Source: a virus | Taxonomy: Duplodnaviria > Heunggongvirae > Uroviricota > Caudoviricetes | DNA: 41,053 nucleotides | Direction: 5' to 3' (one strand) | IMG/VR virus record: IMGVR_UViG_2617270962_000012 | Span: 1-41,053 of that record | Part shown: positions 3,510 to 3,995 of the stretch, piece after piece | Layout: each line of letters begins with the position of its first letter | How positions within the stretch are numbered: position 1 is the first letter of the stretch | Translations under genes and position numbers: made by a program | The notes under the pieces: generated by a model | Database searches by the model: none | Told to the model about the DNA's origin: nothing | What the model saw: the letters and a program-made list of their open reading frames with translations, nothing else

Positions 3510-3995
3510 CGCGCTGAATTCTGGTAAAAAGAATCCCTCACCATCCGGCGATTATTGAGTCAATTACATTTCCATAAATGCCCCCGTAGGGGCGGTTAGT
3601 TTCTCCACAAAACATAGAAGAACACCTGCGGTGGCAGCCGCCCGGATGGATTGGGTTATGAGCCCGTCGTCCGGTGATGCTCTTCTCTGTTTTGTAAAAA
3701 GGACGGTACCAGCCGGAAGCAAGGGTACAAGCTGGTACCGCCAAGACTACACACAGCATAAAGTTGTGGTGCCGGGTGCCTCCCGGTGCCTGGCGAAGGT
3801 TGCACACCAGGCGGGTGGGTATCCACAGAAGGTCGACTGTCAGCCTCAACCTTAACCCGCGTGCGCTGAGCCGCATTCACCACAACGCTAAGAATTCTCT
3901 CTGGTTGAAAATACTTAGCTGTTATGTGCCTGTCTTTTCACCACTTCAGGCTCGGTGGTATCCTTTTAAGCGCGTATACATAAAAGGAAAATCAA
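3510..3995. other. GC-rich structured non-coding block (candidate ncRNA or regulatory leader)
   Basis: Only short, compositionally implausible Arg/Cys/Pro-rich ORFs on both strands; several perfect inverted repeats, e.g. 'ggtaccagc...gctggtacc' and 'ccatccggc...gcccggatgg'. Confidence 0.25.

Follow-up and report, generated by a model that had tools for sequence, protein, structure and literature searches.

The DNA analysed here, hereafter the window, comprises positions 1 to 41,053 of the IMG/VR virus record IMGVR_UViG_2617270962_000012 (41,053 nucleotides, nt) and is an e14/SfV/SfII-like lambdoid prophage of Escherichia coli; the element in question is a block at positions 3510-3995, in the early-left region. 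The prophage matches E. coli CRE1493 with 100% identity over the query, where it adjoins tRNA-Thr and proA. The minus strand runs leftward, which is the direction of the leftward early promoter (PL), and along it follow the repressor gene, its terminator, a promoter, a small open reading frame (ORF; 4434-4159), the block, yfdR, xis, and int. The repressor is of the S24/LexA type (5302-4628, minus; Pfam domain Peptidase_S24), and the terminator-like hairpin of its gene (4616-4597, minus) directly precedes a PL-like sigma-70 promoter (TTGACA-16-CATAAT at 4588-4561, minus; 11 of 12 consensus matches), which drives the operon containing the block. A first-pass annotation of the sequence had placed the block downstream of a presumed PL; this was correct, the distance to the promoter behind the repressor terminator being ∼570-1050 nt. 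Two tandem 19-nt repeats (4545-4563 and 4565-4583) overlap the promoter and are probably operators; when the operators of PL and of the rightward promoter (PR) were compared, tandem repeats were clear at PL alone. The small ORF (minus) matches phrog_3195, a family of unknown function, over its full length, and yfdR (minus; ATG at 3482 according to the PGAP annotation) encodes an HD-type 5′-deoxynucleotidase (Pfam), after which come xis and int. The block itself, read on the minus strand, is an untranslated spacer of this early-left (PL-type) operon. It forms a genuine structured RNA, which is conserved and constitutes an early-operon variant of known families of prophage small RNAs (sRNAs); its function is one that we infer.

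The first description of the block as GC-rich and poor in plausible ORFs is borne out. Its GC content is 0.563 in 3601-3900, compared with 0.41-0.50 on either side, and the ORFs found in 3510-3995 are overlapping ones of 74-112 amino acids alone, on both strands, without a Pfam match for any of them. It is also, as had been remarked, far larger than a nut site or a terminator; it consists of several RNA modules in series. The inverted repeats noted in the first pass are all present, and two of them correspond to structural elements: CGGTACCAGC/GCTGGTACCG (3704-3713/3731-3740; 10 of 10 positions) is the stem of a terminator, and GTTGTGGTG/CACCACAAC (3763-3771/3878-3886; 9 of 9) is helix P1 of the core domain described below. 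The ggtgcc repeats belong to helix P5, of which they form the arms, and to P1, where they supply the 3′ strand. The third pair, ccatccgg/ccggatgg (3541-3548/3642-3649), did not stand as a structural element. It is 8 nt long, and approximately two perfect 8-nt pairs are expected by chance in 531 nt; moreover, it spans two recombination modules, its left arm lying in the segment upstream of yfdR that is common with K-12 CPS-53. For these two reasons, it was treated as a coincidence. A further arm pair of 25 nt (3607-3631/3671-3695; 80% complementary) constitutes a long hairpin. Folding was compared with that of dinucleotide shuffles, a check proposed with the original observation, and the minus strand surpassed them both in 3693-3916 (z = −2.87, none of 200 shuffles being as good) and in 3576-3700 (z = −6.27); for the plus strand of 3693-3916, z was −1.84.

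The center of the block is a core at 3886-3763 (minus), for which covariation and folding indicate a multi-helix junction of five helices and a pseudoknot. Helix P1 (3886-3878 with 3771-3763) is followed by the junction AAU (3877-3875), the hairpin P2 (3874-3859), P3 (3858-3855 with 3816-3813), P4 (3812-3805 with 3795-3788), and P5, a near-invariant hairpin CCGGG-AGGCA-CCCGG (3786-3772). In the pseudoknot, AAGGUUG at 3853-3847 pairs with CAACCUU at 3802-3796 in the loop of P4. Near-invariant bases are also found in the junction (GAAU) and in the loop of P5 (GGAGG).

A search of the window at Rfam gathering thresholds produced no match anywhere. Below them, however, STnc100 (RF02076; gathering score 47) matched at 3916-3693 (minus) with 44.1 bits (E = 6.2e-8) and along the entire model (1-206 of 206), so the covariance-model scan that had been suggested earlier gave a full-length match, albeit one that does not reach the cut-off. 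The STnc100 motifs UGGUGAAU and ACCGGGAGGCACCCGGCACCA are matched exactly, at 3882-3875 and 3787-3767, respectively, and the P5 pattern is found once in the window, with 0.02 occurrences expected. All early-operon copies tested score between 35 and 44 bits against STnc100. As these scores fall just below the cut-off, the early-operon class is missed by routine annotation. STnc100 is a multicopy prophage sRNA; strain EDL933 has eleven copies, of which one was confirmed by northern blot (PMC5331693). EcOnc27, an Hfq-bound RNA located downstream of stx2, overlaps with it (PMC4104026, PMC12711010). PasD1 and PasD2 of enteropathogenic E. coli, the stability of which depends on Hfq (PMC8550237), are related to STnc100 (bioRxiv 10.64898/2026.05.13.724894). 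The core belongs to this STnc100/PasD superfamily of prophage RNAs. It shares with STnc100, EcOnc27, and PasD the invariant motifs, helices P1, P2, P4, and P5, the topology of the pseudoknot, the location in lambdoid prophages, and an intrinsic terminator ∼20-30 nt after P1. PasB, being described as embedded among structural genes, is a different element.

Scanning IMG/VR with the two invariant motifs returned at least 120 contigs, with 71 distinct inner sequences among the matches listed. The latter fall into two classes, a late one, in which P2 reads CCCCC..GG.GGG, and that of the window, in which it reads GCGGC..GC.CGC, compensatory changes keeping the helix; in the same matches, the middle of the core RNA is hypervariable and the helices are kept. 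Pairing was quantified in two alignments. In the first (A1; 32 diverse family members, plain MAFFT), 79.1% of the cells were paired, compared with 68.2% in column shuffles, of which 0 of 500 reached the observed value, and with 40-52% when the partners were slid; 25 pairs had changes on both sides. The second alignment (A2) consisted of 16 early-operon members gathered without constraint on P1 or P5. Here, 79.7% of the cells were paired versus 71.6% after shuffling (again 0 of 500 reaching it), P1 had both-sided changes in 9 of its 15 pairs, and P5 was paired to 100%, with compensations from CG to UA and from GC to UA. Thus, the comparison for compensatory changes recommended in the first pass yielded pairing above the shuffled controls in both alignments and, in A1, above the slid ones. 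The pseudoknot was assessed without recourse to an alignment: among the matches listed, 55 of the 71 distinct sequences gave p ≤ 0.05 against shuffled loops. Approximately 40 distinct strand pairs occur, the distance from the beginning of the UGGUGAAU motif to that of the 5′ strand being 26-31 nt in every case. The structure line of Rfam STnc100 contains no pseudoknot pairing. Across 27 close variants of the window's block, variation is lowest in the core, where 142 nt contain 9 variable sites; the 157 nt downstream contain 47. The helices and the pseudoknot are kept by covariation on the minus strand, and the earlier suggestion that the block may encode a structured non-coding RNA is supported by the STnc100 match, by the compensatory changes in two alignments, and by the pseudoknot test.

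The window's version of the core is present in 1,844 of 5,426 complete E. coli genomes, mostly with at least 95% identity, and a species-level scan recovered the early class from Escherichia, Shigella, Klebsiella, Raoultella, Citrobacter, and Enterobacter. Copies of the early class follow the repressor gene; this is so in SfV, ST64B, phiES15, a Klebsiella phage, Rac-SA53, and, within K-12, both e14 and Qin. Those of the late class are promoter-proximal leader units, either after the Q gene or directly before holin/endolysin genes. The two classes also differ as to their promoters. A promoter with at least 9 of 12 matches accompanies 26 of 75 late-operon copies, as opposed to ∼2% of background windows, and in 25 of these 26, 7 nt separate the end of the −10 element from the UGGUGAAU that follows. 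By contrast, 0 of 23 early-operon copies reach 9 of 12, and the best match upstream of the window's element (8 of 12) is not conserved between the two upstream alleles, so that a promoter of its own was rejected. The window's element deviates from STnc100 in lacking a promoter at the base of P1, in residing in the early-left operon after the repressor and not in a late operon or moron after Q, in its P2, and in its 3′ end, which is a DicF-like module (see below). Two other settings were encountered. In three IMG/VR contigs, an insertion flanked by portal and terminase-like genes (identified by eye from their translations) houses a variant of the core. Cargo ORFs of 125-421 amino acids that look hydrophobic or coiled-coil come next; here, the RNA heads a moron. 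Late regions of many viral contigs (at least 11) contain two or three tandem core copies, all pointing the same way and spaced 250-700 nt apart.

Could the block nonetheless be without function, that is, a recombination scar, a decaying remnant, or a linker for the exchange of modules, with hairpins that are incidental? The interval is certainly a mosaic, as its sub-modules (3964-3919, 3902-3595, and 3744-3582) are found separately in different phages; there is a deletion junction at ∼3580; and P5 is damaged in the K-12 e14 copy. Such an origin would not account for pairs that are compensated across genera in P1, P2, P4, P5, and the pseudoknot, for a core several-fold less variable than its surroundings, for its frequency and degree of identity among complete E. 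coli genomes, or for relatives that are expressed and bind Hfq. We consider this explanation very improbable. The damage to P5 in e14 (CCGGGGGCACCCGA), which was observed in the copy underlying ymfH, suggests decay in a cryptic prophage.

Existing annotation treats the interval as coding. PGAP lists the block as a "frameshifted hypothetical protein," a pseudogene, and the K-12 annotation names the homologous region of e14 "putative protein YmfH" (ymfH; positions 2570-2881 of the excerpt used); ymfH has been assigned, with other e14 genes, to the YmfT iModulon (PMC12132413). On the plus strand, the ORF at 3631-3855 matches phrog_3651, of unknown function, with E = 3e-49. These labels and the open frames of 74-112 codons speak for a protein, be it a YmfH-type one (minus strand) or a phrog_3651-type one (plus strand), but such a product is extremely improbable in view of how the sequence has diverged. 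Compared with ST64B (74% identity), it has indels of 1, 1, 20, 1, 3, 1, 2, 1, and 2 nt, which break all frames, and substitutions are spread evenly over the three codon positions (18/18/20); the same holds for the 63 variable sites of the 27 close variants (24/20/19). The frame is lost even among near-identical copies, hence the "frameshifted" of PGAP, no Pfam family is matched, and no gene is annotated at the homologous regions of ST64B, phiES15, Stx2c, Klebsiella, and Rac phages. The substitutions that are present preserve RNA base pairs. Because PHROG families derive from ORF predictions, one can arise from a conserved stretch that is non-coding, and the match to phrog_3651 most probably stems from ORFs called on conserved non-coding DNA, antisense to the RNA element; the family may be spurious. 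For the same reasons (no annotated gene in diverged homologues, frame-breaking indels, flat codon-position counts), the alternative proposed in the first pass, a decayed gene remnant, is not supported. A tRNA-like reading was rejected as well, as ARAGORN found no tRNA or tmRNA genes in the window.

Downstream of the core, the RNA resembles DicF, an sRNA of the Qin prophage. A conserved single-stranded segment of 16 nt, UGCUGUGUGUAGUCUU (3758-3743, minus), lies immediately 5′ of an intrinsic terminator, which starts 20 nt after P1 and has a 12-bp stem with one bulge, GGCGGUACCAGC/GCUGGUACCGUCC (3742-3731/3713-3701, minus), containing the perfect 10-bp repeat and followed by five U (3700-3696); the hairpin is present in the minimum-free-energy fold. 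The 21-nt stretch around the single-stranded segment, TGCTGTGTGTAGTCTTGGCGG, is identical in K-12 e14 and Rac-SA53. In ST64B and phiES15, the terminator stem has other sequences, still as a hairpin followed by a U-run; the 16-nt segment has one change in ST64B and is kept in the Cronobacter phage phiES15 despite its wholly different hairpin. Its retention where the hairpin has been replaced is the pattern expected of a seed, which makes it a candidate seed of a DicF-like short RNA. The region 3758-3696 has the anatomy of DicF (∼53 nt), namely, a single strand, a hairpin, and a short U-tail, and has UUGGCGGUAYCAG in common with K-12 DicF. Against the Rfam model of DicF (RF00039; cut-off 48), the window copy scores 19.4 bits (E = 0.26, at 3755-3701) and the Rac-SA53 copy 41.1 bits (E = 5e-6), the latter linking the window's element and DicF by sequence. 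Duplex energies with ftsZ (−80 to +60) were no better than those of shuffles, and the same was true of genuine DicF.

The similarity extends upstream. DicF is cut from an operon transcript, which yields forms of 190 nt (by RNase III) and 53 nt (by RNase E) (bioRxiv 10.1101/2023.04.14.536235). In K-12 Qin, dicF is preceded by a domain consisting of P1, P2, the pseudoknot, and P4, without P5 (positions 2252-2375 of the excerpt), and followed by an intact early-class core (2458-2583), the end of which is 26 nt from the dicB start codon; both structured domains belong to the superfamily and are unannotated. The two lengths place the 5′ end of the 190-nt form 137 nt (190 − 53) upstream of the annotated dicF start, which by this derivation is a few nucleotides ahead of P1 in the upstream domain. 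The core and the DicF-like unit of the window (3886-3696) together measure ∼190 nt and have the same layout as this RNase III-generated precursor, that is, a pseudoknotted domain closed by P1 directly 5′ of the DicF part. The position also agrees, as both elements belong to a leftward operon controlled by a repressor, and the lack of an own promoter is consistent with an origin from the operon transcript. The window's element also differs from DicF: its candidate seed is UGCUGUGUGUAGUCUU, and that of DicF is UUUCUGGUGACGUU; its score is low; the Qin 5′ domain has no P5, unlike the window's core; and neither dicB nor a kil gene follows.

The next module is a long hairpin with a 25-bp stem and a branched apex (3700-3602, minus), located in the region with the z-score of −6.27 given above. 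The 5′ arm of its stem begins with the U-tract of the terminator, and because the stem needs this tract, the hairpin can form in read-through transcripts alone. The stem is perfect in most relatives and has one mismatch in the window; in ST64B and e14, there is one G-C to A-U exchange, plus several changes compatible with wobble pairing. Duplexes of this length are the usual substrate of RNase III, and from the length of its stem, the hairpin is probably an RNase III site. A comparable arrangement is sib/tI of phage lambda, where RNA reading through a terminator acquires a longer duplex open to RNase III cleavage, such that terminated and read-through RNAs meet different fates. The likeness is limited to this principle, with the cut here presumed from the 25-bp stem; there is no sequence relationship, and the lambda site lies beyond int and not at the head of an operon. 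The module 3744-3582 also travels alone, having entered Stx2c, mEp460, and cdtI phages with ∼94% identity. The long hairpin is followed by a small GC hairpin, GCCCC-UACG-GGGGC (3593-3580, minus), placed immediately ahead of the next gene's start codon in relatives; at this spot, the SfV type has a hairpin of different sequence, CGACC..GGGUCG, and ST64B yet another, GGCGG..CCGCC.

Immediately beyond lies a recombination junction (3579-3564, minus) with a remnant yfdP-like start, AUG GAA AUG UAA (3575-3564), forming an ORF of four codons. Homology with SfV/SfIV-type phages ends at ∼3582-3590, where yfdP starts in SfV and K-12, and relative to SfV and K-12 CPS-53, both yfdP and yfdQ are missing. 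Several IMG/VR contigs carry the same junction (∼3564-3582), which is therefore a circulating variant and not a private deletion. The rest of the block and the sequence up to yfdR (3563-3483, minus) is the native yfdR-upstream spacer, 92% identical to the yfdQ-yfdR spacer of K-12 CPS-53, and lies outside the RNA element. The possibility that yfdP of CPS-53 is the homologue of the block was rejected, as the block is absent there and the spacer alone matches; in relatives, yfdP is the gene after the block, not the block itself.

At the opposite edge, a conserved segment of 46 nt (3964-3919, minus) contains a short hairpin (ACCAC at 3958-3954 with GUGGU at 3943-3939, GCCUGA being part of the loop). 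Klebsiella phages carry it at ∼95% identity and Rac-SA53 at 89%, with flanks that differ, and a second allele keeps CCAC/GUGG. In each relative, it is found in the repressor-proximal leftward operon beside the start of an opposite-strand ORF. The segment may act in one of two ways, namely, as a hairpin of the RNA at the element's 5′ edge or as the plus-strand promoter region of ORF 3996-4241 (phrog_3311). The latter would mean that 3919-3995 acts as DNA, as the promoter and 5′-untranslated region (5′-UTR) of this gene, and lies outside the RNA element. That the ORF starts ∼30-70 nt from the segment in the window, e14, Rac-SA53, and the Klebsiella phage, and has a good ribosome-binding site (AAGGA), agrees with such a role, as does a plus-strand TTTTCA-18-TATCCT/TATGCT that can be read by eye. 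This promoter match is weak, though (8 of 12), and was not listed by the promoter scan, and the segment also forms the minus-strand hairpin. We regard a role as DNA as a tentative possibility for these ∼80 nt, to which it is confined, and it can coexist with an RNA function of the remainder. Like phrog_3195, phrog_3311 is a family of unknown function that is matched in full length. The two putative genes, 3996-4241 (plus) and 4159-4434 (minus), converge with an overlap of 83 nt, and ymfI and ymfJ of K-12 e14 have the same convergent, overlapping arrangement.

How such an element would operate can be outlined by analogy with its relatives. The block would be a DicF-type sRNA locus with an STnc100-type 5′ domain, transcribed from PL upon induction, its RNA ending at the terminator or at an RNase III cut and probably being trimmed and dependent on Hfq. 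We consider this the favored explanation and, on balance, a moderately probable one. Inactivation of the LexA-like repressor would release transcription from 4588-4561, through ORF 4434-4159 and into the block, where the nascent RNA would fold into the five-helix, pseudoknotted core (3886-3763). Twenty nucleotides further on, the DicF-like hairpin and its five U (3742-3696) would halt a share of the polymerases, leaving an RNA of ∼190-220 nt that consists of the core and the DicF-like 3′ domain and would be the structural counterpart of the 190-nt DicF precursor of Qin. As with DicF, a cut in the AU-rich linker might then liberate an RNA of ∼60 nt, of which 3758-3743 would pair with mRNAs, aided by Hfq, which binds or stabilizes the relatives EcOnc27 (PMC4104026) and PasD (PMC8550237). 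Polymerases reading through would produce the 25-bp stem (3700-3602, including the U-tract), likely the RNase III site at which the sRNA is split from the yfdR-xis-int message. In this scheme, we infer the efficiency of termination, the cuts by RNase E as well as RNase III, the binding of Hfq, and any targets.

Several observations weigh against this explanation. No transcript data were found for this exact element, and both Rfam scores are below the respective cut-offs (44.1 versus 47 for STnc100, 19.4 versus 48 for DicF). The U-tail of the terminator has five U, as in DicF itself. The cores of Klebsiella, Raoultella, Enterobacter, Qin, and Rac have no terminator of their own and end 25-60 nt before the next start codon, which fits a cis-acting 5′-UTR element better than a stand-alone sRNA. 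Finally, a pseudoknotted junction with near-invariant loop and junction bases exceeds the needs of an sRNA acting by seed pairing.

The last two points lead to another possible function, in which the core (3886-3763) acts chiefly in cis. Within the operon RNA, it would bind a ligand, a protein, or RNA polymerase in the manner of a riboswitch or an antiterminator and gate transcription or translation of the downstream genes, any sRNA released being a by-product. Besides the multi-helix junction with its family-wide pseudoknot and near-invariant bases, the genomic context is in keeping with this, because the core always has the sense orientation and lies just upstream of genes or operons: late-operon copies between promoter and terminator, after Q or before holin/endolysin; the terminator-less early copies 25-60 nt before the start of dicB, kilR, or another first gene; some copies before the cargo genes of the portal-terminase moron; and others in tandem. 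Some late members repeat the 5′ strand of P1 just after P1, which could allow alternative pairing (by eye). Yet no Rfam riboswitch or leader family is matched, Rfam cis-regulatory models giving nothing in 3300-4700 at E ≤ 10 apart from noise; neither a ligand nor a protein partner nor a switching helix was identified; in the window, the DicF-like module, the terminator, and the long hairpin come between the core and the next gene; and relatives of the core are experimentally established as Hfq-bound, stable sRNAs with many RIL-seq partners (PMC8550237, PMC4104026). A function that is mainly cis-acting is therefore unlikely, and so is its generalization, that the core of STnc100, of PasD-type RNAs, of the DicF precursor, and of the window is a widespread cis-acting control domain of lambdoid operons. 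If it were true, one cis domain, a receptor for a metabolite, a protein, or RNA polymerase, would head early-left, late, and moron units and set how much transcription or translation reaches their genes, kil and dicB included.

Antitermination deserves separate mention in this context. An N-like protein is not evident in the phage, which would suit a cis-acting core; the small ORF after PL has neither an arginine-rich motif (by eye) nor a Pfam match. For the late genes, however, the phage has a Q antiterminator gene (PF03589; 10469-11263). The put RNA of HK022 and the nut sites of lambda come to mind, as here, too, a structured RNA follows shortly after an early promoter in a phage without recognizable N protein. 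However, put is ∼70 nt long with two stems, the block resembles putL in neither sequence nor structure, and no similarity to the PL-nun region of HK022 was seen by eye or with blastn at word size 7, so that put was rejected as a homologue. So was the 6S/PR′ leader of lambda, in which the core motifs are absent and which gave no significant blast match. Elsewhere in these operons, the first ∼70 nt from the PL-like promoter (4470-4540, minus) read ACAGGCAGGACGCCCACGAAGTAGCCGCC..GGCATA.GAA..GGATGATTCG and are conserved in Salmonella phage ST64B (excerpt 2165-2235), although the genes behind differ there; Rac-SA53 and a Klebsiella phage have a different conserved leader in common, GTTCCGCYACCCGGCGWTAAGGG. 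Such conserved post-PL leaders could be nut- or put-like sites in phages without a recognizable N protein. On the late side (10469-11857), a gap of 595 nt separates the Q gene from the DNA methylase and holin genes. It contains weak terminator-like matches to the Leu and Trp leader models (11326-11396), and the family core is absent from it. Rfam isrK has no match above threshold in the window; above-threshold matches to it occur on the PR side of ST64B (21-97 minus of the excerpt, 64 bits) and of an Stx2c phage (26-102 minus, 60 bits).

With the block seen as a DicF-type locus with an STnc100-type 5′ domain, the kind of element is one already known; novelty lies in connecting DicF with STnc100, in the pseudoknot, and in copies that precede genes for inhibitors of cell division. 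Approximately a third of the complete E. coli genomes carry the core, for which the annotation reads hypothetical protein, frameshifted pseudogene, or, in e14, putative protein YmfH; on the present evidence, what is thus listed is an RNA. The pseudoknot, family-wide and not part of the Rfam structure, and the near-invariant junction suggest a function beyond seed pairing. STnc100/PasD and DicF, which have been studied separately, appear as neighboring modules of one modular system, the parts of which recur in early-left operons, late operons, and morons across the Enterobacteriaceae, and the 190-nt precursor of DicF thereby gains a structural explanation.

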